A stretch of DNA of 64,000 nt, taken from contig WRHR01000005.1 of the NCBI GenBank assembly GCA_009783145.1, positions 194 to 64,193 on the forward strand. The letters are read 5' to 3'. A program made the position numbers and the translations under genes. The notes under the pieces were generated by a model. That model ran no database searches. It was not told where the DNA came from and worked only from the letters and a program-made list of their open reading frames with translations. Below are positions 2,571-64,000 of the stretch, piece by piece (the stretch's first letter is position 1; each line of letters begins with the position of its first letter). The DNA comes from Alphaproteobacteria bacterium (GTDB lineage: Bacteria > Pseudomonadota > Alphaproteobacteria > Rs-D84).

Positions 2571-2592
2571 AAAGAAACCTCTCTTCAAAAAA

Positions 2593-3183
2593 TGTCAGAC
2601 GGGCCGTAAGCCGGATTCTGTTCTATGGCATAATTAATCTGTCGCGGCGGATTACTCCACCGGATCAAGCCCTCTACCCGCCCCCAACGCCAGGCGCGCT
2701 GGGGACCATGTGGAGAAAATATTGCGCGATTTGCGGCAGGGGATTTGAAGCAAGGACGAGGATTTTCGCGCAGACCGTATATTATACGGGCAAGCGGAAA
2801 TCCGAAGTTATTGATTCAAATACGCGCCGTCGCTTTGCGATGCAGCTAAAATCACCCATCGCTTTGTCAGATTGGCTCGATGTATAATATACATTTTCGC
2901 CAATCTTTCGCGCGCTGTGCGATTTTATCTCGCACAAATCGCGCAATATTTTCTCCACATGGCCCCTGGGGGCCTATTTGAAGTTGCACCACATAGAGAT
3001 TGCCCGTTTCACCCGCCTTCGCCAAGGCTACGGCGGGCAAGCCCGTCATGCCTTATTGAAGACGACTCCGTCTCTGTTGCTCTGATCGTCGGGTCGCCCC
3101 GCCGGGCCGTTAGCCCGTATGCTGCCTGGTGGTGTCCGGACTTTCCTCGCCATTTCTGGCGCTATGCCTCGCCCGTCTGACCG
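2593..3183 (-). ncRNA. rnpB: RNase P RNA (bacterial type A core) with large insertion
   Basis: Minus strand contains P4 5' strand GAGGAAAGTCCGGAC (about 3139-3153), P4 3' strand ACAGAATCCGGCTTA (about 2608-2622), P1 pairing GTCAGACGGGC/GCCCGTCTGAC (3171-3181 with 2594-2604), GCAACAGAGA, GGGTGAAAC, CAAATAGG and GGGTAGAGGGC blocks in canonical order. Confidence 0.85.
2706..2962. repeat. 257-nt insertion in rnpB bounded by 28-bp perfect inverted repeat
   Basis: 2706-2733 CCATGTGGAGAAAATATTGCGCGATTTG is the exact reverse complement of 2935-2962; interior holds AT-core palindromes CCGTATATTATACGG and ATGTATAATATACAT. Confidence 0.75.
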
Positions 3184-6338: not shown

Positions 6339-6455
6339 CCACTCCCGCTGGTTTGCTGGCCCCGGCGAAGGCCGGGGCGGGAGTGGGTCTTTAAAACCTT
6401 TGGCTCGCTTCGCTCGCGGTTTATGGGCCCTATTCCTGCCTACGCAGGAATGACA
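6339..6455. repeat. palindromic repeat family B, copy 1
   Basis: Shares core GGTCTTTAARACCTTTGGCTCGCTTCGCTCGCG..GGCCCTATT with 16621-16717; flanked by local hairpins CCACTCCCGC/GCGGGAGTGG and ATTCCTGC/GCAGGAAT. Confidence 0.65.
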
Positions 6456-9102: not shown

Positions 9103-9140
9103 CTTCTCATTCCTTTGTTATTGTTATACAATTTATAAGT

Positions 9141-9718
9141 GCCGGATTCTGGTGCCAGGCTCCGGCGGGCCCCGCATAAGCTAAGCGGGCGTTGCGACAA
9201 TTGCCGCGCGCGCCCTTGTGCCCTTAGGCAGCCAATGCAAGGCGAACATTGCTGTTCGCAGCGATTCTATCGCCATTCAGTTTTTTTCAGCCTTTTTCGG
9301 GAGCAACCCCGGACGCACTCTTTATCTTTCAGCCATTGTCGAGCCTGGTTCACCCCCATGCGCGGCTGCGCCGCGAGAGTGGCGCAAATGCTTCGCATTT
9401 GCTAGAGTAAAGATTCTTCGGCTGCGCCGAAAAATCAGAGTATTCGCTCGCTTCGCTCGCAGAGTAGGAGAGTAAGAGAGTAAAAGAGTAAAAGAGCATC
9501 TAAAACTCTACTACTCTCTTACTCTGCAAATGCGAAGCATTTGCGCTACTCTGCCGGCGAAGCCGGCGTCACTCTGCGCGCGAAGCGCGCGCTACTCTCA
9601 TCCACCATTTCCTATTGCGCCGCAGGCGCAATAGGAAATGGTGGAGGTGCCGGGTACCGCCCCCGGGTCCAAAAAGCCTATTGCATAAAGCATTCAGCAT
9701 CGTCTTCCCCGAAGGGAC
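9141..9718 (-). ncRNA. ssrA: two-piece (circularly permuted) tmRNA gene
   Basis: Acceptor piece ends ...GGACCCGGGGGCGGTACCCGGCACCTCCACCA (CCA at 9639). Coding piece starts GGGGGTGAACCAGGCTCGAC at 9357. GGGGGTG pairs 7/7 with CACCTCC including G3:U70. Tag frame GCT GCG AAC AGC AAT GTT CGC CTT GCA TTG GCT GCC TAA = AANSNVRLALAA. Confidence 0.8.
9358..9638. repeat. ~280-nt tmRNA intervening segment built of AGAGTANN octamers and GCGAAGC-centred mini-hairpins
   Basis: AGAGTAGG AGAGTAAG AGAGTAAA AGAGTAAA on one side and TACTCT units on the other, interspersed with GCAAATGC-GAAG-CATTTGC, GCCGGCGAAGCCGGC, GCGCGCGAAGCGCGCGC, CGCTCGCTTCGCTCGC. Confidence 0.75.
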
Positions 9719-9724
9719 TTACTA

Positions 9725-9752
9725 ATTATAAGGGAAATTTATGAAAAATCAA
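9725..9752 (-). promoter_or_regulatory. sigma70-like promoter TTGATT-16-TATAAT for ssrA
   Basis: Minus strand -35 at 9752-9747, -10 at 9730-9725; predicted start gives an acceptor piece of about 80 nt. Confidence 0.45.
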
Positions 9753-10051
9753 GCGCCTTGCTTTTTCGCCGCAGCCAATGCCGCGCGCAAGGATTTCTCG
9801 GCCAAAACCCGGATTTTCGGCGCAAATGCCCGCATATTCATCGCGTCTGCCACAGAATTCGCGAAAAGCTCTGCTATATAATTAACCTGAGTCGGCGCAA
9901 TCACGAAGACTTCACTGGAAATCTGTTCGGGCCGCAACTTCAATGCGCCCCCCTTCGCTGAAGCTATGGGGGGCAGGCCCGGGGTCGGCCTGTCCGCCGG
10001 AGCCTTGGCGTAGGCGGATTTTTTTATGATGTCTTCTATTGAATTTTCCAT
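9749..10051 (-). CDS. hypothetical protein containing two copies of the GC-hairpin insert
   Basis: 100-aa ORF divergent from secA; residues YAKAPADRPTPGLPPIASAKGG are encoded by hairpin copies at 9948-9973 and 9993-10018. Confidence 0.45.
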   Translation of the reverse strand: MENSIEDIIKKSAYAKAPADRPTPGLPPIASAKGGALKLRPEQISSEVFVIAPTQVNYIAELFANSVADAMNMRAFAPKIRVLAEKSLRAALAAAKKQGA

Positions 10052-12800: not shown

Positions 12801-12920
12801 AATTAGCGATTAGCAATTATCAATTAGCGGTTAAACGCAACATAAACATTGTCCATTATAATGGACATCGTTATTCACACACTCTAAATCGCTAATCGCT
12901 AATTGATAATTGCTAATTTA
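12801..12920. repeat. heptamer-arm hairpin element H1 with TGTCCATTATAATGGACA core
   Basis: Left arm ATTAGCG ATTAGCA ATTATCA ATTAGCG (12802-12829), core palindrome 12850-12867, right arm CGCTAAT CGCTAAT TGATAAT TGCTAAT (12889-12916); right arm runs into dnaE stop codon. Confidence 0.8.
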
Positions 12921-16620: not shown

Positions 16621-16717
16621 TGTCATTGCGGCGCAGGCCGCAATAGGGTCTTTAAGACCTTTGGCTCGCTTCGCTCGCGATTCCTAGGCCCTATTGCGGA
16701 CCAAGTCCGCAATGACA
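16621..16717. repeat. palindromic repeat family B, copy 2
   Basis: TGTCATTGCGG..CCGCAATAGGG-core-CCCTATTGCGG..CCGCAATGACA; core matches 6385-6435. Confidence 0.65.
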
Positions 16718-20690: not shown

Positions 20691-21968
20691 TTACGCAAGC
20701 AGATATTCTTTATCCGCGCCAACGATTTTCAAATCGCGCACCGTTCGCGAAGGAATCGGCGCTCCGCTTACCTTTACGGGGATGTCGTCGGGCGTGCGGC
20801 CTATGTTTTTTTCTTCCATCAAAACGCTGGTTGTTTTTCCTATTTGAGACTTCATGAATTCGCGTCGGTTTTGCTGCGCAAGTTCGTTTACAAGCTTTAC
20901 GCGGCGCTTTGATTCCGCGCGGTCCACCTGGTCCGGCATAGTCGCCGCCAAGGTGCCGGGCCTGGGCGAGAACGGAAACGCATGTATATGTATCGGCTTC
21001 AGCTCTTTTATAAGCGCGCAGGTTTCTTCAAACAACTCTGGCGACTCCCCCGGAAATCCGCAGATGATGTCCCAGGAAAAGGTAGGAGGTAGGAGGTAGG
21101 AGGTTGGAGGTGTCATAATTTTCCGCACAATTTCCGCATTATGCCGTCTGCCCATTGCAGAGAGTATTTTATCACTGCCGCTTTGCATTGAAAGATGCAA
21201 GTGCGCCAGCATTCGGGGGTCTCGCGACATCAGCTCGATAATCTTCGCGCATTCGGGGCTGGCCGGATCAACCGAGGACAAGCGCAGGCGCTGCAACTGG
21301 GGGATGTCGTCCAAAAGCCGCCGACACAGGTCGCCAAGCCCCCCGTCCGCGCGATATCCCGCTATATCAACGCCTGTCAAAACAACTTCGGTAAAGCCGT
21401 TCAGGGCCGCGGCGCGGGTTTCGGCCAGAATCCGCTCGTACGGGAAAGAGACGTTTTTCCCACGCAATTTGCTGACTATGCAATACGCGCAGCTGTGATT
21501 GCAGCCGTTCTGGATTTGGATAAAGGCTTTGGATAGCGTTGAGTGTTGAATGTTGAGCGTTGAATTATAAATTTCAGACTTAACTTCACATTTATACGCA
21601 TCAATGTTGAATTTATCCTTATTCGCCACCACTGCCGCGACGCCGGGGATTTTGGCATAGTCTTCGGGAGCGCGGGTCGCGGCGCAGCCCGTGATAAACA
21701 ATGGTACGCCCGGGTGCTCGCTCGGCTTCGCCTGCGCGCATCCTCCTAGTTGCTCGAACTTCGCTACGCTCGTTCTCGCATACTCGGATTCGCGAGCCAG
21801 CTTTCGGATTGCTTGACGGGATTGGCGCTCGGCCTCGGCCGTCACCGCGCAAGTGTTCACTATTATAGCATTTTTGACACCGGCGGCGATAAGCATAGAT
21901 TTGATTTTCTCCGCCTCGACCATATTCAGCCGGCAACCAAACGACAAAAATTTTACTTGATTTTCCAT
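20691..21968 (-). CDS. mtaB: MiaB/MtaB-family radical SAM methylthiotransferase
   Basis: N-terminal FGCRLN...NTCAVT, radical SAM CNHSCAYC, DIICGFPGE, C-terminal TRAM-like region; ATG 21968 chosen because the longer ORF overlaps rpoZ. Confidence 0.8.
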   Translation of the reverse strand: MENQVKFLSFGCRLNMVEAEKIKSMLIAAGVKNAIIVNTCAVTAEAERQSRQAIRKLARESEYARTSVAKFEQLGGCAQAKPSEHPGVPLFITGCAATRAPEDYAKIPGVAAVVANKDKFNIDAYKCEVKSEIYNSTLNIQHSTLSKAFIQIQNGCNHSCAYCIVSKLRGKNVSFPYERILAETRAAALNGFTEVVLTGVDIAGYRADGGLGDLCRRLLDDIPQLQRLRLSSVDPASPECAKIIELMSRDPRMLAHLHLSMQSGSDKILSAMGRRHNAEIVRKIMTPPTSYLLPPTFSWDIICGFPGESPELFEETCALIKELKPIHIHAFPFSPRPGTLAATMPDQVDRAESKRRVKLVNELAQQNRREFMKSQIGKTTSVLMEEKNIGRTPDDIPVKVSGAPIPSRTVRDLKIVGADKEYLLA

Positions 21969-23882: not shown

Positions 23883-24329
23883 TTATCTCCTGCCGCCGCC
23901 CATGCCGCCGTGGAACCCTCCGCCATGAAAGCCCATACCCATGCCGACCGCCGGAGGTCTGTTCATAATGCCGGATGCGCCGGCGCGATCGCCGGACCGG
24001 ACTTCTTCAAAGTCTCTTGCGTGATCCGTTCTATAGGCGCGCCGCTCGTCCGGGCTTAATCCATGCCAGCGGTCGCGCATATGCGGGTCGCGCCAGCCGT
24101 ACCGGTCGCCCGCCCAATAAAACACCGCGTCGCCGCAATCGCTGTCAAACTCGGAAACGTTAGTCAGCATGCAATCGCCCAGGTTATTCGTCTCGGCACA
24201 ATACTCGTCTATTTCCGGGCCGCACGCGTCGGCCCACGGATACAACCCCGCATCCACGCCCAAGAACGCGTGCGCCGTACCGGCGCAGAGTAGAAGAGCA
24301 AGAGAGTAAAAGAGTAAAAGTTTCTTCAT
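23883..24329 (-). CDS. secreted protein with Gly-rich C-terminus
   Basis: Signal peptide MKKLLLFYSLALLLCAGTAHA (hydrophobic core encoded by an AGAGTANN array), C-terminal GMGMGFHGGGFHGGMGGGRR. Confidence 0.5.
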   Translation of the reverse strand: MKKLLLFYSLALLLCAGTAHAFLGVDAGLYPWADACGPEIDEYCAETNNLGDCMLTNVSEFDSDCGDAVFYWAGDRYGWRDPHMRDRWHGLSPDERRAYRTDHARDFEEVRSGDRAGASGIMNRPPAVGMGMGFHGGGFHGGMGGGRR

Positions 24330-24399
24330 CGGAATTCCTTTTTTAAGTATTTTATGAGAAAAGAACAGATAATGCAGTAAGAAAAAAATCGGCCAATAT

Positions 24400-24623
24400 A
24401 ATGACTAATGACTAATGACTAATGACTAATGACTAATGACATGTCAACTGTCCGCGGTTGTCCAATATATTAGACAACCGATAACGGCCTTTGTTATATA
24501 GTCTTTTTCATCTTTGCTATTCTAGTATACTAGAATAGCAAAGATGAAACAAAATGTCCTTTATAAAGGACAAGCATTAGTATCCATTATCTATTATCCA
24601 TTGGTCATTAGTCATTAGTCATT
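24400..24623. repeat. heptamer-arm hairpin element H3 (AATGACT units) with three internal palindromes
   Basis: AATGACT x6 at 24400-24440; GGTCATTAGTCATTAGTCATT at 24603-24623; internal palindromes about 24467-24488, 24508-24547 (40 nt perfect) and 24555-24572 TGTCCTTTATAAAGGACA. Confidence 0.8.
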
Positions 24624-24624
24624 A

Positions 24625-24660
24625 AAAAATAAAACCGGCAAAAGCCGGTTTTATTTTTTC
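24625..24660 (-). terminator. rho-independent terminator after rplY
   Basis: AAAAAATAAAACCGGCAAAAGCCGGTTTTATTTTTT. Confidence 0.6.
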
Positions 24661-28140: not shown

Positions 28141-28234
28141 CGCTCCTCGCAATGACAATCAAGAGTATGTTCGGGGCACACAACCTAAAACAAATACCGA
28201 ATTGTCATTGCGAGGCGAAGCCGAAGCAATCCAG
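28121..28234. repeat. palindromic repeat family D, full copy
   Basis: Left arm CTGGATTGCTTCGTCGCTAACGCTCCTCGCAATGACAAT, right arm ATTGTCATTGCGAGGCGAAGCCGAAGCAATCCAG; right arm is the exact reverse complement of 42213-42246; left arm encodes the last residues and stop of holB. Confidence 0.75.
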
Positions 28235-28255
28235 TAAATAAAGAGATAAAGAGAA

Positions 28256-29029
28256 ATGTTCATAGATACACATTGCCACCTTACGAACAGATACATCCCC
28301 CTTTGCCAAGGCTCCGGGGGACAAGCGAAGAACGCGGACGAAGTAATTGCGCGCGCGGCCGCATCCGGCGTCGGAGCGCTGATTTGCGCTTGCGCGGAAC
28401 CGGGCGACTTTGAGTCCGCAATCGCGTTGGCTGAGAAGCACAAGAATGTTTTCGCGACAATCGGCATTCATCCCGACACTGCGGGGAAAGCAACGCCCGA
28501 TTACGGATATCTGTTGTCACACCCGAAAGTAGTCGGTGTCGGGGAAATCGGCCTTGATTATCACTACAACGCGGAAAATAAAAATCAGCAGATCGAATTA
28601 TTCCGCGCGCAATTGGAAATCGCCCGCTGCGCGAACCTGCCGATTGCCGTGCATTCCCGCGATGTCGAGGAAGATATCGCCGCGGCCCTGGACGGCTCGG
28701 TCGGCGGCGTCATGCACTGCTTTACGGGCAGTTGGGATTTTGCAGCAAAGATGCTGGACCAAGGCTTTTACTTTTCCGCCAGCGGAATAATTACTTTCAA
28801 AAACTCCAATGAATTGCGTGAAGTTTTCGCAAAAATTCCGCTGGACCGGATTGTTATTGAAACCGATGCGCCTTGGTGCGCGCCCGTTCCCTTTCGCGGA
28901 AAGCCTTGCGAGCCGGCAATGGTTGCCCAGACCGCGCGCGTCTTGGCCGAAACCCGGGGCTTGAATTTGCCGGAATTGGAGATTATATTAGAAGAGAATA
29001 CAAAACGGCTATACCCTAAATTAAAATGA
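28256..29029 (+). CDS. tatD: TatD family metal-dependent DNase/hydrolase
   Basis: FIDTHCHL, GEIGLDYHY, HSRD, HCFTG, ETDAPW motifs. Confidence 0.9.
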   Translation: MFIDTHCHLTNRYIPLCQGSGGQAKNADEVIARAAASGVGALICACAEPGDFESAIALAEKHKNVFATIGIHPDTAGKATPDYGYLLSHPKVVGVGEIGLDYHYNAENKNQQIELFRAQLEIARCANLPIAVHSRDVEEDIAAALDGSVGGVMHCFTGSWDFAAKMLDQGFYFSASGIITFKNSNELREVFAKIPLDRIVIETDAPWCAPVPFRGKPCEPAMVAQTARVLAETRGLNLPELEIILEENTKRLYPKLK

Positions 29030-29505
29030 CAAGAGCAATTATTAAATCTGGACAGGTTTCTGAAAATCGCAAAGCGCGGTTCAATTACTCTATCGAAGAC
29101 ACCATAGAGGCTGGCGTTTCGTTGACCGGCGCCGAGGTCAAATCTATCCGATACGGCCTGGTTACGATTGTCGACGGGTTCGTGTCGGCGCGCGATGGAA
29201 ACCTGGTCTTGAAAAACATCGTCGTCCAGCCACTGCCCACCGCCGCAAAGATCGTGCGCTTTGACGAGCGTCGCGGGCGCCAATTACTGCTTCATCAAAA
29301 TCAGATTAACCGCTTGATTGGAAAGCTGTCGGAAAAAGGTGCGACTATTGTCCCGCTGAAATTATATTTCAACTCGCGCGGGAAGCTGAAAGTTTTGCTG
29401 GGAATCGGATACGGCAAGAACCGCACCGACAAGCGCGAGACTATTAAACGCCGCGAATGGGATAAAGAAAAGAGTAGAATTATCAGAGGGAAGAATGTAA
29501 AATGA
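29026..29505 (+). CDS. smpB: SsrA-binding protein
   Basis: ENRKARFNY, GAEVKS, LLLHQ, YGKNRTDKRETIKRREW motifs. Confidence 0.9.
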   Translation: MTRAIIKSGQVSENRKARFNYSIEDTIEAGVSLTGAEVKSIRYGLVTIVDGFVSARDGNLVLKNIVVQPLPTAAKIVRFDERRGRQLLLHQNQINRLIGKLSEKGATIVPLKLYFNSRGKLKVLLGIGYGKNRTDKRETIKRREWDKEKSRIIRGKNVK

Positions 29506-29573
29506 ATTTACGATTTGCGATTTACGATTTGTTGGGAGTGAAATCGTAAATCGCAAATCGTAAATCGTAAATT
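29506..29573. repeat. heptamer-arm hairpin H4 (ATTTRCG units), no AT-rich core
   Basis: ATTTACG ATTTGCG ATTTACG ATTTG / loop TTGGGAGTG / AAATCGT AAATCGC AAATCGT AAATCGT; begins right after the smpB stop. Confidence 0.75.
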
Positions 29574-34749: not shown

Positions 34750-34880
34750 CACTTCGCGTCTGTGACGCTTCGTGTGGCTTCGCCACGCGAAATGCGGAGC
34801 AGCGAAGTCCAACGAAGCCTTGGCGAAGTTGGATGAACGCGAAGTAGTGCCACCCGTAGCCTTGGCGTAGGGTGGCGGAG
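34745..34880. repeat. tRNA-3'-flank repeat, copy 1 (with extra GC-hairpin module)
   Basis: CACCACACTTCGCGTCTGTGACGCTTCGTGTGG..CCACGCGAAATGCGGAGCAG..AACGCGAAGTAGTG..GCCTTGGCG; first 57 nt differ at only a few positions from 53508-53564. Confidence 0.8.
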
Positions 34881-42155: not shown

Positions 42156-42286
42156 AATGACTAATGACCAATGACTAATTAATGGGTTCGCTTTCGCTCA
42201 CAAGTTCATCGACTGGATTGCTTCGGCTTCGCCTCGCAATGACAATTTAGCGTGGATTGGTAATTAGTCATTGGTCATTAGTCATT
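42156..42286. repeat. heptamer-arm hairpin H5 (AATGACT/AATGACC units) carrying a family D half-element as core
   Basis: 42156-42181 is the exact reverse complement of 42261-42286 (26 bp); interior 42213-42246 equals the family D arm. Confidence 0.8.
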
Positions 42287-43232: not shown

Positions 43233-43304
43233 AAAAGTAGAAAGTAGCAAGTAGAAAGTAGAAAATATATACCCCCTACTTCCTACTTTCTACTTGCTAC
43301 TTTT
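43233..43304. repeat. heptamer-arm hairpin H6 (GTAGAAA/GTAGCAA units)
   Basis: AGTAGCAAGTAGAAAGTAG in left arm pairs with CTACTTTCTACTTGCTACT in right arm; right arm covers the last four codons (KSSK) and stop of murJ. Confidence 0.75.
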
Positions 43305-47281: not shown

Positions 47282-49210
47282 TTATTTCATCACAAAATGC
47301 ACGTGGATTGACGGGCTTTTGCGATCGCCCAGCATCGGACGGATGACCTTTTTTACCGCCGCATCAACGGATTGCCGCAATGCATCCTGCGATTTTCGCT
47401 CCCCTTTGCCCAGGTCCTTTATCAGATTCGTGATTTCGATTTGGATTTGGCGCTTCGCGTAGCCCGTAGCGTCGGATTCGAACAATCCCGCGCTGGAGAC
47501 CTCGGGCACGTCTTTCAGGTATCCCCTTTTATCCACCGACAAGGTCACGAACACCGCTCCTTCGGTCGAAAGCTTTTTCCGGGTTTTCAGCACCGGATCG
47601 TCGCCGCTGCGCTCCGTTTCGCCTTCCATCACTATAAACCCGGCCTTGAAGCTTTCCGTCACATACGGCTCTTCGCCCTTGCGCAGCGCCACGATGTCGC
47701 CGTTATGCACCAGCATCATCGACTTGGCCCCGCCGCGCTCCATCGCCATCTTCGCGTTCAACATTTCCGTAACGTATTCGCCATGCATAGGGATGATTAC
47801 CTGCGGATGGACTATGTCATAGAACTTTTCATATTCCGGCCGGCCCGCGTGTCCGTTCGCGTGCAATTTCGCCGTGTCGAAAATGGTCTTCGTAGTAATG
47901 CCCATTTTCGCCAGCTTGTTATACAAGAACGATACCGCCGATTCCCGGCTGGGGATTATAATCGCGCTGAACACCACGGTATCCGTCGGCATCAGCTTCA
48001 GCTCTTTTACATGTCCGCGGCAAAGGCGCGTCAGCATGGCGTATTTCTCGCCCTGCGAGCCAGTCAGGTATATCGCCTGCTTTTCGGCCGGCAAGTCCTT
48101 GACCTCGCTGTGCAGCATTATATCTTTTGGCACATAGCCCAGCTCTATCCCCAGCTCGCGAAATTCCGGCAAGCCCACGAACGGCACGGGTTTGGGGTTG
48201 CTGCGCTCCTTTATGCAAGGCACGCGGCCGGCGGCCAATGCCGCCTTTGTGAATCCGTCCATGCGCGCCATACTGCGCGAGTATCCGGTGACCAGCACCC
48301 GCCCTGGAGCATTCTTCATTATATCTTCCAGAGTCTCGGCGACCTCCAGCTCCGTCGTCTGGACGGGTTGGCGCGTGATTTCCGTCGAATCATTGACGCA
48401 AGCCAGCAAGTCCGGATCGCTGCCTATCTCGCGCAATCTGGCGTAATTCGTCGGGCTTTCGATCGGAATCCCGTCGTTAAAGGTCCAGTCGCCGGTATGC
48501 AGTATTTTTCCCGCGCCGGTTTTTATCACCAGCATCTGCGCTTCGGGTATCGAATGGCTGACGTGAAAGTTTTCTATATCGAACGGGCCGACTTTGAACT
48601 GGGAGCCTTCGTGGTCTATGACAACGAAGTCGCTTGGCTTGTAATCGATTTCCAGCCCGTCGAATGTCCGCTTCATGAATTTTGCCACGAACCGAGTGCA
48701 ATAAATCGGGCACTTGAACTTGGGCCAGATATATTTAAGCGCGCCGACATGGTCTTCGTGTCCATGAGTGATAACTATTCCGACTATATCTTTCTTGCGC
48801 TTTTCCAAGTACTCCGTGTCGCTGTACTTCACGTCCTCGCCGCCGACATCCGCGTCCAAGAATCCCATTCCGCAATCGACGATCAGGTACTTGCCCTTGT
48901 ACTTATAGACGTACATATTCTGGCCGACGTGTTCCAGCCCGCCCATAGCGAAGAAGTAAATCACATCGTCGGGGTCGTCGGATTTTTGATTTACGATTTG
49001 CGATTTACGATTTGATTCCCCGGTTTTAGAGTTTTTAGTTTTTCCTTTGGCGATAGCAGCATCGGCGGCGGCAATCGCCACACCCTTGCCGTCATCCGAA
49101 AAAGGATCCGTAATATCCACATCGTCTTCCGTGTCATAATCGCCGTTATGCAAGAACGGCAAGTTGGCTATTTTGTCGTTCTCGTTTTTCTGTTTTTTAA
49201 GTTTTACCAT
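47282..49210 (-). CDS. rnj: ribonuclease J with ~85-aa N-terminal extension
   Basis: Metallo-beta-lactamase HGHEDHVGAL, beta-CASP region, RNase J C-terminal domain. Confidence 0.9.
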   Translation of the reverse strand: MVKLKKQKNENDKIANLPFLHNGDYDTEDDVDITDPFSDDGKGVAIAAADAAIAKGKTKNSKTGESNRKSQIVNQKSDDPDDVIYFFAMGGLEHVGQNMYVYKYKGKYLIVDCGMGFLDADVGGEDVKYSDTEYLEKRKKDIVGIVITHGHEDHVGALKYIWPKFKCPIYCTRFVAKFMKRTFDGLEIDYKPSDFVVIDHEGSQFKVGPFDIENFHVSHSIPEAQMLVIKTGAGKILHTGDWTFNDGIPIESPTNYARLREIGSDPDLLACVNDSTEITRQPVQTTELEVAETLEDIMKNAPGRVLVTGYSRSMARMDGFTKAALAAGRVPCIKERSNPKPVPFVGLPEFRELGIELGYVPKDIMLHSEVKDLPAEKQAIYLTGSQGEKYAMLTRLCRGHVKELKLMPTDTVVFSAIIIPSRESAVSFLYNKLAKMGITTKTIFDTAKLHANGHAGRPEYEKFYDIVHPQVIIPMHGEYVTEMLNAKMAMERGGAKSMMLVHNGDIVALRKGEEPYVTESFKAGFIVMEGETERSGDDPVLKTRKKLSTEGAVFVTLSVDKRGYLKDVPEVSSAGLFESDATGYAKRQIQIEITNLIKDLGKGERKSQDALRQSVDAAVKKVIRPMLGDRKSPSIHVHFVMK

Positions 49211-51195: not shown

Positions 51196-51440
51196 CAAGT
51201 AGCAAGTAGAAAGTAGGAAGTAGGAGGTAGGAGGTAGGAAGTAGGAAGTAGGAGGTAGGAAGTAGGAAGTAGGAGGTAGGAGGTAGGAGGTAGGAGGTAT
51301 AAAAGGGCCGATAGTAATCTTTACCATACTAGTATGATAAGTATAAAATGCTTTGTTCGTTATATTCGTTATAATGGACATCATATTTATAACCTCCTAC
51401 TTCCTACTTCCTACCTCCTACTTCCTACTTTCTACTTCCT
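51196..51440. repeat. heptamer-arm hairpin H7 (GTAGGAA/GTAGGAG units), largest copy
   Basis: About 15 tandem GTAGNAR units at 51196-51300; complementary CCTCCTAC/TTCCTAC units at 51392-51440; interior has CATACTAGTATG palindrome (51325-51336) and core half-site GTTATAATGGACA (51368-51380). Confidence 0.8.
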
Positions 51441-51463
51441 ATCTTTTATGCTATAATTCAACT

Positions 51464-53512: not shown

Positions 53513-53625
53513 CACTTCGCGTCTGCGACGCTTCGTGTGGCAAGCCACGCGAAATGCGGAGCAGTGCAACGCGAAGTAGTGTCGCCCGAAGCCTTGGCGA
53601 AGGGGGACCGGCAAGCCACCAAAAA
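53508..53625. repeat. tRNA-3'-flank repeat, copy 2
   Basis: Same modules and order as 34745-34880, starting at the last acceptor-stem nucleotide of the tRNA. Confidence 0.8.
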
Positions 53626-54515: not shown

Positions 54516-55370
54516 ATGAAACGAGTTTTTCTCGCTGCTTTTTATTGCTTGTTTTTCGGCGGAGCCTTGGCCGTTGATTTTCCGGCAGTACAACAAGACA
54601 CCACGTTGCGCGCGGCGGGCTTTCCGGAATCGAAATTCGATTACTCATTCACCGAGCGGGTTGCCGCAATGCGTGAGGGCTACGCTCCGTTCGAAACCCA
54701 ATACGACGCCAACGGCAATTGCGTATCCGGATGCGCTTATCAGGGAATGAATATCGACACCGAAGCCCGGCGTCTGGAGCGCGACATCGCCATAACTCAG
54801 CAAAAAATAGCTGATTACCGCGCCTTGCACCCAGAGGTGTCGGGGTCGGCGCAAGAATATGCACAGCAACCGAACGTGACAACCGCACCGACACTTACAC
54901 CGGCACCAACAACGCCAACGGCGGCGGCGCGATGCCAGCCCCTGAATTCGGCGATTCCGAATCTGCAGACTATACCGCTGGGGCTGCCTTTATTGGGCGC
55001 GCCGCGGATTACATCCGGCTTTCAGCCGGCCAGAAAGAATCCCGTGGACGGTAAGGTTCGCGACCATAACGGCATCGATTTTGCCGCCCCACAGGGCACG
55101 CTGATCTTTTCGCCCGCAAGCGGAACCGCAGAGCGCGTGTTTCAGGACTCTGCCTGCGGCAAAGGCGTCATTATAAAGCACGGCGAGGGCTTTTCGACCC
55201 TTTACTGCCACTTGTCGGACAACAGCATAGTGCGCCAAGGCGAAGCGGTCGGCGCCGGGTGTCTTGTCGCAAAAACCGGAAATACGGGGCGGTCCACCGG
55301 CCCGCACTTGCACTATGGCATTTATCTGAACGGATTATTTGTTCCGCCGGAGAATTTTATTTCAAGGTAA
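54516..55370 (+). CDS. M23 family metallopeptidase
   Basis: Signal peptide; HNGIDFAAP and GNTGRSTGPHLHYGIY zinc-binding motifs. Confidence 0.85.
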   Translation: MKRVFLAAFYCLFFGGALAVDFPAVQQDTTLRAAGFPESKFDYSFTERVAAMREGYAPFETQYDANGNCVSGCAYQGMNIDTEARRLERDIAITQQKIADYRALHPEVSGSAQEYAQQPNVTTAPTLTPAPTTPTAAARCQPLNSAIPNLQTIPLGLPLLGAPRITSGFQPARKNPVDGKVRDHNGIDFAAPQGTLIFSPASGTAERVFQDSACGKGVIIKHGEGFSTLYCHLSDNSIVRQGEAVGAGCLVAKTGNTGRSTGPHLHYGIYLNGLFVPPENFISR

Positions 55371-55374
55371 GGTA

Positions 55375-55492
55375 TTCCCCTCCTGTGGAGGGGTGGATGC
55401 GAACGAAGTGAGCAGACGGGGTGGTTTGTTTAATGTTCATAGATTACAAGAACCACCCCGCCCCTTCGGGGCACCCCTCCACAGGAGGGGAA
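55375..55492. repeat. palindromic repeat family C, copy 1
   Basis: TTCCCCTCCTGTGGAGGGGTG ... AACCACCCCGCCCCTTCGGGGCACCCCTCCACAGGAGGGGAA; termini are inverted repeats. Confidence 0.75.
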
Positions 55493-55516
55493 CCGCGACT
55501 CCGCCGATATAGTTTA

Positions 55517-56146
55517 TTACTGTAAAATTTTAAGGAGTTCCGTTGCGGCGGCCGAGGTGGCGGATTTTTTTGACGCGCCCGACCCCAATGCGCTTTGCCC
55601 CAGCGCAGATACGCGTACTTTGAACACAGGGCTGTGCGATTTTCCGTCCTCGTCAATAAATTCATATTCCGGCAGCGCGCCGCCGCCGTTCTTCTGCACG
55701 AATTCCTGCAACGCCGTTTTGGAATCTTTTGGCGGAATCGCATCCCTTGCCGCCAGGTCGCGCCAGATTCGCGTCACTTCCGCGCTGGCCGCTGGAAATC
55801 CGCCGTCCAGAAATATCGCGCCCAAGACCGATTCCATCGCGTTTGCCGCGATGTGATTCATCTTGCCAGCGGTCATATGTCCGTGCCGGATTTTTTTATC
55901 AAAGCCCAGCTCTTTCGCAACCTCGGCCAGTGTTTCGGTAGAGACCAATACTGCATGGCGCCGCGCAAGGTCTCCCTCTGTCTCCGATGGAAACATTTCG
56001 TACAGCAGCGCGGCAACGGACAGGCCCAGTACGCGGTCGCCGATGAATTCCAGACGCTCGTTATTATTAACCGCATCCGCGCCGCTCTGCGTCAGCGCCA
56101 GCGCGAACAACTTTTCATCCACGAATTTGTATCTTAACTTCTTCAT
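55517..56146 (-). CDS. rnc: ribonuclease III
   Basis: ERLEFIGDRVLGL catalytic signature, C-terminal dsRBD; ATGA overlap with lepB stop. Confidence 0.95.
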   Translation of the reverse strand: MKKLRYKFVDEKLFALALTQSGADAVNNNERLEFIGDRVLGLSVAALLYEMFPSETEGDLARRHAVLVSTETLAEVAKELGFDKKIRHGHMTAGKMNHIAANAMESVLGAIFLDGGFPAASAEVTRIWRDLAARDAIPPKDSKTALQEFVQKNGGGALPEYEFIDEDGKSHSPVFKVRVSALGQSALGSGASKKSATSAAATELLKILQ

Positions 56147-57027
56147 TTGATACCCAGACCAAATCTGTCCCATCTCATCTTATCCAGCCAGTTCCACACC
56201 AGCGGCATCCATGAATAGTAATTGTGGCTGTACCACACGAACCAGACTTTGCCCATTATATTATCCCTTGGAACCATGCCCATTTCAGAACGGCTGTCCG
56301 CGGACCAGTCGCGGTCGTCGCCCATAAAGAAATAGTATCCTTCGGGCACCTTGAATAACTGCGTGTTATCATATCTTTCGTTGTCGCTGCGTTCTATAAT
56401 CTGATGTCTGGTGCCATCGGGCAGTACTTCCGTCCATTCGGTCAGCTCATCAATTCCGCCCTCGGCGCAAATCGGCGACATCATGCATTCTCTGCGCGTT
56501 TTGTACTCTATCGTATAGTTAAAGTTCGCGGGCTGGTTGTCTATGAACAGCTTATTGCCTTTAATAGAAATATCGCCCTTATAGAATCCCACGCTGCGGA
56601 TATCGGTCGGCAAGTGCGCGATTATATAGCGGCGCGGGTTTTCGCGTTCTGCCTGCTGCCCGTTTATATACAGCCGGCCGTTTATCATCTGCACCGTGTC
56701 GCCCGGCTTGCCTATCAATCTTTTCACATAATCCAGCGATTCATTCACCGGGTTGCGGAAGACTATGACGTCGCCCACCTTTGGCTCGGACGCCATAAAC
56801 CGACCGTTCCACAGGCGCCAGCTGCCGAACGGAAAGCTATACCTGCTGTATCCGTACGACCATTTCTGGATGAATATATGGTCGCCTACATGCAATGTCG
56901 GAATCATGCTGCCGGACGGGATATTAAAAGGCTCTAGCAGTAGGCTGCGGAAAATTATCGCGATAAGCCCCGCCCAAAATAAAGTATTGACCCATTCGCG
57001 CGTCGTGGATGTATATTTCTTTGCCAT
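56143..57027 (-). CDS. lepB: signal peptidase I
   Basis: IPSGSMIPTL (catalytic Ser), VKRLIG (catalytic Lys), GDDRDWSADSR. Confidence 0.95.
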   Translation of the reverse strand: MAKKYTSTTREWVNTLFWAGLIAIIFRSLLLEPFNIPSGSMIPTLHVGDHIFIQKWSYGYSRYSFPFGSWRLWNGRFMASEPKVGDVIVFRNPVNESLDYVKRLIGKPGDTVQMINGRLYINGQQAERENPRRYIIAHLPTDIRSVGFYKGDISIKGNKLFIDNQPANFNYTIEYKTRRECMMSPICAEGGIDELTEWTEVLPDGTRHQIIERSDNERYDNTQLFKVPEGYYFFMGDDRDWSADSRSEMGMVPRDNIMGKVWFVWYSHNYYSWMPLVWNWLDKMRWDRFGLGIK

Positions 57028-58646: not shown

Positions 58647-59615
58647 TTAAAATTCAAACCTGACCCCGACCATCGCGGTGCCGTAAAACACGTTATGCGC
58701 GCTGAAAATGTCCTTGGTCTTGTATCCCGTCACGCTCTCCACAGGCTCGTTATTAAGCGCCCACTTGATTTGCGGTATCCACATCAGCCTGAAACTCAAA
58801 TCCAAAAATATACTTTCCGCCAGGCCGTATGAAAAGCCCACCGCTCCCGACAGAGCCACATTATTGGTCGAAGTTTTGGAAGTGTAAAAAGTAAGCACTC
58901 CCGTTCCCAAATCCTCGCCGAAATCCTGCATCGACGCCTGGTCGGACAAGTCCCCGTAAAGGTCGATCAGATTCAGCACCGTCGTTGAATCCGCATAACC
59001 CAAACCAAAACCTAGATACGGGATAAACGCCTTTAACGGCTTGTACAGCCCGTCGAAGAAATCGTAATAGACCATCGCGGAATATACGTCCGTCGTAACA
59101 TTGGATTGGACGCCGGTGGATTCCACTTCTAACACATAGCCCTCCGTCGACACCACGTCGCCCCTGAACATCGGCAATGCGTTGTAATCAGACCTGGTTA
59201 TGCGGTCCCAGGACGCTTCCAGCCGCCACTGCGGCGAATACGGCAGAGTCAAGCCCACCGCGACGCCCCCGGCGAAAGAAAATGGCTGGAACTTCTTCGC
59301 CGCAGGCAAATCCCCAATATTAATCTGGCCGATGGGTATAAATCCGGCCTCGAGACATGGGAGGTACCCGCCGCACCAACTCTCCGTAAATACGCCTATG
59401 TCGGGGTCGTACCAATAGGGTTCCGGTATCAGCGAGCCCAAATCATTCTCGACCCTGCCCGTTCCAAAAGCCATCCCGCCGCGCGCCGTAATCGTTATCC
59501 GGCTTCCGTCGTCGCCCAAATACCCGCCCGGAGCATAGTATTCCCAGTTGGCTTGCGCAGGCGCAAGCCAGAGCATAGAGCACAGAGCACAGATAACAGA
59601 CTTTGTGAATTTCAT
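58647..59615 (-). CDS. outer-membrane beta-barrel protein
   Basis: Signal peptide MKFTKSVICALCSMLWLAPAQA, aromatic-rich alternating strands, C-terminal VGVRFEF. Confidence 0.7.
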   Translation of the reverse strand: MKFTKSVICALCSMLWLAPAQANWEYYAPGGYLGDDGSRITITARGGMAFGTGRVENDLGSLIPEPYWYDPDIGVFTESWCGGYLPCLEAGFIPIGQINIGDLPAAKKFQPFSFAGGVAVGLTLPYSPQWRLEASWDRITRSDYNALPMFRGDVVSTEGYVLEVESTGVQSNVTTDVYSAMVYYDFFDGLYKPLKAFIPYLGFGLGYADSTTVLNLIDLYGDLSDQASMQDFGEDLGTGVLTFYTSKTSTNNVALSGAVGFSYGLAESIFLDLSFRLMWIPQIKWALNNEPVESVTGYKTKDIFSAHNVFYGTAMVGVRFEF

Positions 59616-59670: not shown

Positions 59671-59816
59671 GGCGGGGCGGTGTTCCCCTCCTGTGGAGGA
59701 GTGGCGCATCAGCGCCGGGGTAGTTCGGGTAATGTTCGTATATTGTTATAAATGCTCGCGCATTACACAAACCACCCCGCCCCTTCGGGGCACCCCTCCA
59801 CAGGAGGGGAACACCT
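59671..59816. repeat. palindromic repeat family C, copy 2
   Basis: GTGTTCCCCTCCTGTGGAGGAGTGG ... AACCACCCCGCCCCTTCGGGGCACCCCTCCACAGGAGGGGAACAC; 42-nt right block identical to copy 1. Confidence 0.75.
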
Positions 59817-59831
59817 CATCGCGAATTATGG

Positions 59832-63757: not shown

Positions 63758-63759
<2 letters not shown>
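63571..63759 (+). CDS. small acidic secreted protein
   Basis: GGAGAGGAG RBS; signal peptide MKKLALIGIFALLPFVASA; Glu/Val-rich mature part. Confidence 0.5.

Positions 63760-64000
<241 letters not shown>

Follow-up and report, generated by a model that had tools for sequence, protein, structure and literature searches.

Several bacterial systems are known in which short palindromic repeats settle in or between genes. Rickettsia palindromic elements (RPEs) sit in the genes for transfer-messenger RNA (tmRNA) and RNase P RNA and in protein genes, as far as the account of Ogata et al. 2002 relayed in PMC2229807 goes, and are described for R. bellii as well (PMC1458961). [quoted passage not shown] Repetitive extragenic palindromes (REPs), with their composites BIME and REPIN and the associated transposase RAYT, are small palindromes with a short conserved flank that occur in opposite orientations, form larger hairpins and are thought to act as single-stranded DNA (PMC3733652, PMC3116915). 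At the level of single hairpins, d(GCGNAGC) forms an extraordinarily stable DNA mini-hairpin with a melting temperature of about 76.5 C (Kimoto and Hirao 2026, PMC13037366); the GNA-triloop motif is exceptionally stable in DNA and unremarkable as RNA (PMC13037366; PMC3201870), and the known natural examples come from phages and plasmids, where they lie at priming sites and at promoters (PMC13037366). Here we describe a repeat-built insert in ssrA, the permuted (two-piece) tmRNA gene, of an Alphaproteobacteria bacterium (assembly GCA_009783145.1, contig WRHR01000005.1). The window is the whole analysed stretch of this contig, 64,000 nucleotides (positions 194 to 64,193). We consider it probable that the insert is a foldback repeat carried as a passenger in the spacer that ssrA discards, removed in normal maturation, neutral or slightly costly and without a function of its own.

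The gene and its parts are located as follows:
9138..9756, minus strand: permuted (two-piece) ssrA/tmRNA gene, identified with Rfam, 619 nt with the insert and 338 nt without it
9639..9701, minus strand: acceptor piece (tRNA-like 3' part) with its encoded CCA end at 9639, from the cmscan alignment
9358..9638, minus strand: intervening segment, 281 nt, 53% GC, about 80% of bases paired in the minimum free energy (MFE) structure, from Rfam and folding
9138..9357, minus strand: coding piece, its first bases GGGGGUG being the 5' strand of the acceptor stem, from the cmscan alignment
9224..9262, minus strand: tag reading frame AANSNVRLALAA plus stop, from translation
9725..9752, minus strand: ssrA promoter of the sigma-70 type, TTGATT-16 nt-TATAAT, from the promoter scan (10/12 matches)

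Two Rfam models, RF01849 (alpha_tmRNA; 143.8 bits, gathering score 50) and RF04321 (tmRNA_permuted; 104.9 bits, gathering score 47), match 9138-9756 over their full length, with the acceptor piece lying 5' of the coding piece and the tRNA-like domain's base pairs in place. Between the two pieces the alignment leaves a single long unaligned insertion. The acceptor piece terminates on the minus strand in CACCUCCACCA at 9639 and GGGGGUG starts at 9357, hence the segment spans 9358-9638. An initial annotation made from the letters alone had placed a segment of about 280 nt at exactly these coordinates.

For comparison we used five syntenic loci, together with eight contigs from GTDB genomes that have an invariant 25-nt stretch within the acceptor piece in common. 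They derive from metagenome-assembled genomes (MAGs) of termite gut and other guts labelled Alphaproteobacteria or Rickettsiales. SecA relatives (83-87% identity) retain the gene order around ssrA, which in the window reads Lon-like AAA protease, small open reading frame (ORF), ssrA, small ORF, SecA, DnaE. The best named SecA relatives of the host are a 'Rickettsiales bacterium' MAG and 'Candidatus Enterousia', and its clade is gut-associated. In sixteen related ssrA sequences (15 loci) the spacer from CCA to GGGG measures 7-12 nt (examples are ATTTCTAT and ATAAATTTTAT), against 281 nt here, which agrees with the abnormal length claimed in the initial annotation; the complete related genes measure 307-351 nt each. 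In the nearest relative, L013 (WRCA01000018.1), the gene is 90.7% identical over the 338 nt left after removal of the insert, and its spacer is 11 nt. Since every complete related ssrA has a spacer of 7-12 nt, the insert is derived and lineage-specific. The ancestral spacer TTTCTAT is visible in L003 and L017 (within ATTTCTAT) and in L006.

The locus L006, from the same sample (SecA 83%), differs from the others. At about 1500-1800 on its minus strand the acceptor piece and CCA-TTTCTAT are directly followed by a different palindromic element (CCCCTCC...GGAGGGG family) that includes GCCAGC-GAA-GCTGGC; next comes a transketolase gene. Within the 8.9-kb locus no ssrA coding piece was found, and this ssrA is either split between loci or broken.

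European Nucleotide Archive (ENA) contigs of the samples ERZ27257305 and ERZ27257320 contain the insert in identical form, without a single mismatch in the 420 nt compared. The window equals the ERZ27257305 contig exactly over 8.6 kb and runs past that contig's end. The ERZ27257320 contig was found by exact-protein look-up of the neighboring 100-aa ORF, a look-up that returned no variant insert alleles. A metagenome scan with the lineage-specific acceptor sequence gave only the L013 contig and thus no second presence/absence allele. Judging by these matches, the insert is real DNA and not an accident of assembly.

Outside the spacer the gene is well preserved: no decay was seen in the tag, stop codon, tRNA-like domain, promoter or Rfam score. 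The tag frame is intact, with a hydrophobic tail of the ...LAA type before the stop, and the same tag is called by ARAGORN in L013. The promoter elements TTGAT/TTTGC and TATAAT are conserved in an alignment with five relatives. The acceptor stem consists of 7 perfect base pairs, GGGGGUG/CACCUCC in the window versus GGGGCUG/CAGCUCC in L013, and this exchange of G-C for C-G is, by comparison of the two stems, a compensatory change. The Rfam score falls inside the relatives' range of 129-167 bits. An intact smpB is situated 20 kb from ssrA. Two protein genes bear on tmRNA function and maturation:
29026..29505, plus strand: smpB, protein partner of tmRNA (Pfam SmpB, 1.1e-47)
55517..56173, minus strand: RNase III gene, candidate cutter of the insert's long helices (Pfam Ribonuclease_3 and dsrm)

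From its sequence the ssrA of the window looks functional. The initial annotation had tied its proposal to the presence of the segment in related ssrA loci and to the functionality of this copy: the segment is indeed absent from all relatives, and non-functionality is not indicated. ARAGORN made no tmRNA call in the window, which says nothing about the insert because it also missed four of five compact relatives (L002, L003, L004, L009), all of which Rfam detects. Three plus-strand ORFs over the segment (9139-9405, 9218-9475 and 9541-9744) were judged spurious because they overlap conserved tmRNA sequence.

Within the segment and at its acceptor-side border we distinguished the following elements, which are unstranded:
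9601..9645: H0, perfect 21-bp hairpin with a GCA/UGC triloop (repeat finder, fold)
9576..9590: h1, GCGCGC-GAA-GCGCGC on the plus strand, with a UUC loop in the RNA (hairpin scan)
9553..9567: h2, GCCGGC-GAA-GCCGGC (hairpin scan)
9526..9544: h3, GCAAATGC-GAA-GCATTTGC (repeat finder, hairpin scan)
9461..9525: central foldback of AGAGTANN octamers (4.5 copies, 9461-9496) opposite ACTCT units (9505-9525), with the apical loop between them (Tandem Repeats Finder (TRF), inverted repeats, MFE helices)
9445..9460: CGCTCGCTTCGCTCGC, a direct 9-nt repeat containing GCTTCGC (repeat finder, DNA fold)
9412..9436: h5, GATTCTTCGGC-TGC-GCCGAAAAATC, 11 bp (6-bp core 9417-9431) with G-U pairs in the RNA, weakly terminator-like
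9384..9402: h6, GCAAATGC-TTC-GCATTTGC, mirror copy of h3 (repeat finder)
9361..9375: h7, CGCGGC-TGC-GCCGCG, 3 nt from the 5' end of the coding piece (hairpin scan)

The picture of a hairpin of hairpins drawn in the initial annotation holds: arms of AGAGTRNN/ACTCT octamers carry seven perfect mini-hairpins, and the RNA folding energy of the region is -183.8 kcal/mol versus -113.4 +/- 5.5 for shuffles (z = -12.8). The octamer arms stand likewise, with the AGAGTANN arm opposite ACTCT units. AGAGTA occurs 26 times in the window (7.6 +/- 2.7 expected), and ten of these copies are located inside the segment. TRF finds arrays with units of 8 nt (9461-9496) and of 23 nt (9543-9598), and an outer inverted repeat of 40 nt joins 9363-9402 with 9526-9565 (90% complementary, repeat finder). 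In the MFE structure the central foldback consists of a 15-bp and a 5-bp helix. The perfect hairpins centred on GCGAAGC or GCTTCGC listed in the initial annotation were recovered as well, except that CGCTCGCTTCGCTCGC is a direct repeat: it forms no hairpin alone (DNA minimum free energy 0), and the MFE structure pairs it with the h1 region. No target-site duplication was found around the insert, whose junctions read ...TTTCCTAT|TGCGCC... and ...GCGCAT|GGGGG. An Rfam scan of the segment at permissive threshold gave only generic long-hairpin (miRNA precursor) matches well below gathering scores, and no tRNA, intron, riboswitch or other known RNA. Readings as CRISPR, retron or integron attC were dropped: the units are only 8 nt long, and spacer structure, reverse transcriptase and integrase are all lacking.

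All seven perfect side hairpins share one feature, a C-GNA-G triloop (complement C-TNC-G), with GAA in four cases and GCA in three. Their stem sequences vary from unit to unit, yet all are perfect. With a stem of at least 6 bp, these seven are the only C-GNA-G hairpins in the 64 kb, where 0.65 +/- 0.73 are expected (maximum 3 in 100 shuffles). GCGAAGC/GCTTCGC occurs five times and GCGCAGC twice within 9361-9592. Two further points qualify the initial annotation. The bare heptamer GCGAAGC is not over-represented in the window (26 versus 20.9 +/- 4.5 expected), the informative statistic being the number of stems centred on it rather than heptamer counts, and the recurrence of this centre in other repeat families is weak, with stems of 2-5 bp outside the segment. 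When stems of at least 5 bp are counted, six C-GNA-G hairpins lie outside the segment, a mild excess over the roughly 2.3 expected for the whole window, and four of them fall in two repeat families. All six have GNA on the minus strand, though four of the six come from those two families; within the segment GNA loops split 4:4 across the strands because the whole segment is a palindrome. The exceptional stability that the initial annotation gives for d(GCGAAGC) is documented for d(GCGNAGC) (PMC13037366), and the GCA-loop hairpins are likewise GNA triloops (PMC3201870). Nearest-neighbor DNA folding does not capture this special stability.

The insert is not isolated: palindromes and arrays made up of tandem units of 7-8 nt occur genome-wide, and it is one of them. 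The 64 kb hold 22 tandem arrays of period 7 or 8 (3.4 per 10 kb), and many of them form both arms of a palindrome, each palindrome having a unit of its own. Representatives are located at:
51197-51448: AGGTAGG inverted-arm array
24399-24624 and 42156-42286: TAATGAC inverted-arm arrays
12801-12918: AATTAGC inverted-arm array
63758-63877: AATTAAC inverted-arm array
29506-29572: ATTTACG inverted-arm array
43234-43303: AAGTAGA inverted-arm array
21080-21111, 48988-49014 and 59569-59600: heptamer arrays in coding regions
2591..3180, minus strand: RNase P RNA with a palindromic insert of about 265 nt (2702-2966), from Rfam RF00010 (168 bits, 230-nt unaligned block)

Three of these palindromes (12801-12918, 24399-24624 and 63758-63877) enclose the core GTCCWTTATAAWGGAC, with 3 matches versus 0.04 expected. 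Their heptamer arms AATTAGC, TAATGAC and AATTAAC differ among the copies and are complementary within each. In-frame arrays are present in protein genes for a MiaB-like radical-SAM protein, for RNase J, where the array encodes SNRKSQIVNQ near the N-terminus, and in the hydrophobic cores of two signal peptides. The RNase P RNA insert is situated in a peripheral helix and has 32-nt arms that are 97% complementary, and its sequence is unrelated to the ssrA insert. Among the relatives with compact ssrA we counted no arrays of period 7 or 8 in about 90 kb, apart from one in L011. L006 is the only other array-rich relative, and it also has a palindromic element at the ssrA site.

Further repeats were noted in passing. 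The RNase P RNA gene has a second, smaller insert (about 27 nt) upstream of the palindromic one. Two copies of a nested palindromic element, each some 140 nt long (TTCCCCTCCTGTGGAGGGG ... GCCCCTTCGGGGC ... CCCCTCCACAGGAGGGGAA), are present at 55360-55500 and 59672-59822, and their family is also represented in the L006 ssrA spacer. Right after the CCA of tRNA-Gly and tRNA-Thr (34750-34830 and 53513-53580) follows a nested-hairpin repeat of about 70 nt, CACTTCGCGTCTGYGACGCTTCGTGTGGC..GCCACGCGAAATGCGGAGCAG. The 15-mer GCTCGCTTCGCTCGC within the CGCTCGCTTCGCTCGC repeat recurs at 6403-6417 and 16664-16678, both with the common flank CCTTTGGCTC. Finally, ATTGTCATTGCGAGGCGAAGCCGAAGCAATCCAGT occurs in two copies of opposite orientation (28201-28235 and 42212-42246) and presumably resembles a widespread small bacterial repeat.

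Two observations bear on how the insert was built. The first concerns a paralogous module elsewhere in the window:
24271..24320, unstranded: mini-hairpin TGCGCCG-TAC-CGGCGCA followed by an AGAGTA octamer array (blastn-short)

Positions 9458-9494 of the insert and 24284-24320 of this module are identical in 35 of 37 nt (95%, E = 2e-10, blastn-short). By this similarity the two share a recent common source, and this part of the insert is a copy of the module or was donor to it. Read on the minus strand, the module supplies the signal-peptide codons (LLLFYSLALLLCAGTAHA; MKKLLLFYSLALLLCAGTAHA) of ORF 23883-24329, which codes for a small secreted protein. The ortholog in the nearest relative reads MKRILLWTICSLMFAFPAGA; its DNA is non-repetitive, of almost the same length and contains a single TTTTACT. 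Since the codons of the ortholog are non-repetitive and its length matches, the array copy at 24284-24320 is derived, and it follows that the underlying process is able not only to lengthen a sequence but also to replace it. The second observation is H0 itself. Its first arm consists of the tmRNA's own UCCACCA and the ancestral spacer UUUCCUAU (15 nt of ancestral sequence), and its second arm is the inverted copy. As the first arm is the gene's own 3' end plus ancestral spacer, the second arm was copied in place; going by the match of the two arms, it must have arisen by fold-back or template-switch copying and not as the end of a pre-formed element.

The neighborhood of the secreted-protein gene is rearranged. 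Comparison of 23883-24651 with the nearest relative (L019, 1501-1957) shows this gene in inverted orientation with respect to the L25 gene, and the TAATGAC palindrome occupies a 320-nt gap at the inversion breakpoint where the relative has 25 nt.

If the insert is a passenger, its history may be pictured as follows. A foldback repeat would have arisen or landed in the throw-away part of the permuted ssrA. The complete 619-nt precursor would still be transcribed from the conserved promoter, and the insert would fold on itself into a branched rod. RNase III would cleave the long perfect helices, chiefly the 21-bp H0 that locks the CCA end; RNase P would next generate the GGGGG 5' end of the coding piece, and 3' exonucleases would trim back to CCA, giving a normal two-piece tmRNA. 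The 21-bp and 15-bp helices would be natural RNase III substrates. In the predicted precursor fold UCCACCA is held in H0 and GGGGGUG is paired with CACUCUCG over 8 bp, which suggests that the tRNA-like domain would form only after the rod is cut. Growth of the spacer from about 10 to 281 nt was most likely harmless to the gene.

Several points weigh against this account. Both acceptor-stem strands are captured by the insert in the predicted precursor fold, which might hinder maturation if H0 stays uncut, and the internal hairpin at 9412-9436 is weakly terminator-like. The removal of the segment and the enzymes responsible for it are what we infer. The view covers 64 kb of the genome, and a second intact ssrA may therefore exist elsewhere. 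No enzyme for spreading or building the repeats was found among the about 58 ORFs of the window: a Pfam scan detected no Y1/RAYT domain (PF01797), no other transposase, no integrase and no reverse transcriptase. Finally, a purely neutral passenger leaves the uniformity of the seven C-GNA-G loops unexplained.

This uniformity is the starting point for an alternative that the initial annotation had hinted at and that we regard as unlikely, namely that the modules are single-stranded-DNA elements. The GCGNAGC mini-hairpins would then serve as recognition hairpins of the REP/RAYT or IS200/IS605 kind, or as nuclei of snap-back priming, and the segment would be a REP/BIME-like cluster rather than a random expansion. 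Seven of seven perfect side hairpins with C-GNA-G triloops (tips of the GCGAAGC type, GCGCAGC and CCGCAGG) against 0.65 expected speak for this reading, and the motif is special as DNA rather than as RNA (PMC13037366; PMC3201870). The stems vary between units yet remain perfect, units in inverted orientation make larger hairpins as in REPINs (PMC3733652), and H0 displays templated inverted copying. REPs carry a conserved GTAG or CGTC tag beside an imperfect palindrome of 20-40 nt. The flank of the hairpin units is also reminiscent of REPs: AGAGTRN follows each hairpin on the same strand, and AGAGTAG, containing GTAG, precedes two. GTAG itself is found in only two of the seven units, however, the others having GTGA, GTGG, GTAA and GTAT. 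Hairpins of this type with a stem of at least 6 bp are confined to 9361-9645, and as they occur nowhere else in the 64 kb they are not a dispersed high-copy family here. In addition, strand bias is absent within the segment, and the domain scan of the window ORFs revealed neither Y1_Tnp/RAYT nor another transposase domain.

A broader proposal, to which we likewise assign a low probability, is that the host and L006 carry an undescribed bacterial class of 'foldback' repeats built by hairpin-templated (snap-back or template-switch) copying that is possibly nucleated by GCGNAGC. Such a process would place tandem units of 7-8 nt, along with perfect palindromes, in stable-RNA genes and between genes, and would overwrite even coding sequence of equal length, as in the signal peptides. 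If this were true, the ssrA spacer would be a fossil record of several copying rounds.

Quite unlikely, in our estimate, is that the insert is an RNA device for processing or regulation, in which the CCA end is hidden by H0 and the GGGGG end by CACUCUCG, and the RNase III cut times or throttles tmRNA maturation, a situation comparable to rRNA processing stems and intervening sequences. The enclosure of UCCACCA in a 21-bp perfect helix, the 8-bp pairing at the 5' end of the coding piece, the fold z of -12.8, the RNase III gene in the window and the same insert in two samples are all consistent with this. However, the sixteen related ssrA sequences (15 loci) work with a loop of 7-12 nt and no insert, the same kind of repeat is found at many sites without such a role, and any palindrome-making process gives perfect stems for which selection is unneeded. 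With the insert present in one lineage only, covariation is not assessable.

We regard it as very improbable that the insertion inactivated ssrA, making this copy a young pseudogene in a host that has another ssrA or alternative rescue systems. The sequestration of both acceptor-stem strands in the predicted precursor fold and the weakly terminator-like internal hairpin would fit, and L006, with its acceptor piece, repeat and transketolase gene and no coding piece after the repeat, indicates that ssrA can be disrupted at the spacer site. On the other hand neither the tag and its stop codon nor the tRNA-like domain or the promoter is damaged, the Rfam score is normal, smpB is intact, and the insertion hit precisely the spacer that is discarded. 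Hardly credible is a misassembly of the chimeric or fold-back type: the source is a short-read metagenome assembly and two Logan contigs from other runs end just before the insert, but contig breaks at repeats are usual for unitig-style assemblies, the insert lies mid-way in long contigs flanked by both correct halves of one gene, and two samples assembled separately, as well as a further, longer assembly, all show it unchanged.

With the insert taken as a passenger, the locus is a natural experiment in which the spacer of a two-piece tmRNA tolerates an approximately 25-fold expansion to a rod of very high stability, in which both strands of the acceptor stem are sequestered. This tolerance makes the maturation path (RNase III, then RNase P, then 3' trimming) testable. 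The architecture of the insert may further reveal the mutational process that makes such repeats. On the practical side, gene finders can overlook or truncate ssrA genes of this kind, ARAGORN being the example here.

The event as such is not new, because Rickettsia is a known case of repeats invading stable-RNA genes, and one repeat in a permuted-tmRNA spacer has been reported. So far as could be found, it is the building blocks that are unfamiliar: arms of tandem units, palindromes with GNA triloops and an outer arm for which the gene itself was the template. In layout there are parallels in other organisms. Heterocystous cyanobacteria have STRR (short tandemly repeated repetitive) heptamers, tandem 7-nt units scattered through the genome, and the Foldback transposons of eukaryotes have inverted arms of tandem short repeats. 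Organisms and sequences are different in both cases, and the likeness is one of layout without evidence for a shared mechanism. Bacterial 23S rRNA intervening sequences are excised by RNase III without religation, leave a fragmented but functional RNA and occur sporadically among close relatives. The ssrA insert shares with them the long helix in place of a short loop, the location in a stable-RNA gene and the sporadic presence among close relatives. It differs in that it causes no new fragmentation, because this tmRNA type is already cut there, and in that cleavage by RNase III is inferred here.

With d(GCGNAGC) the segment has the exact motif in common, located at the tips of its side hairpins; here, in contrast, the motif caps longer stems in a transcribed spacer, and a role at the DNA level is hypothetical. 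The likeness to REPs and REPINs lies in small palindromes with a short flank that occur in opposite orientations and fold into larger hairpins. In contrast to these, the stems vary by unit, no single high-copy family exists, the units are embedded in an octamer array and no RAYT is encoded among the about 58 ORFs, so that membership in this group fails on dispersal and on the transposase. The permuted gene of HGM16780 corresponds, by description only, in gene form and in the site of the repeat, an intervening sequence absent from mature tmRNA; the insert described here, at 281 nt, is the shorter of the two. With the RPEs the comparison extends to the genome as a whole: an alphaproteobacterial host carries short palindromic repeats in tmRNA, in RNase P RNA and in frame in protein genes, apparently without destroying them. 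The units differ, with arms of 7-8-nt tandem repeats and GNA-triloop mini-hairpins in a host of a gut-associated clade, and in ssrA the insert occupies the discarded spacer of the gene. The likeness drawn here between the two systems is one of behavior, in dispersal and in tolerated insertion.

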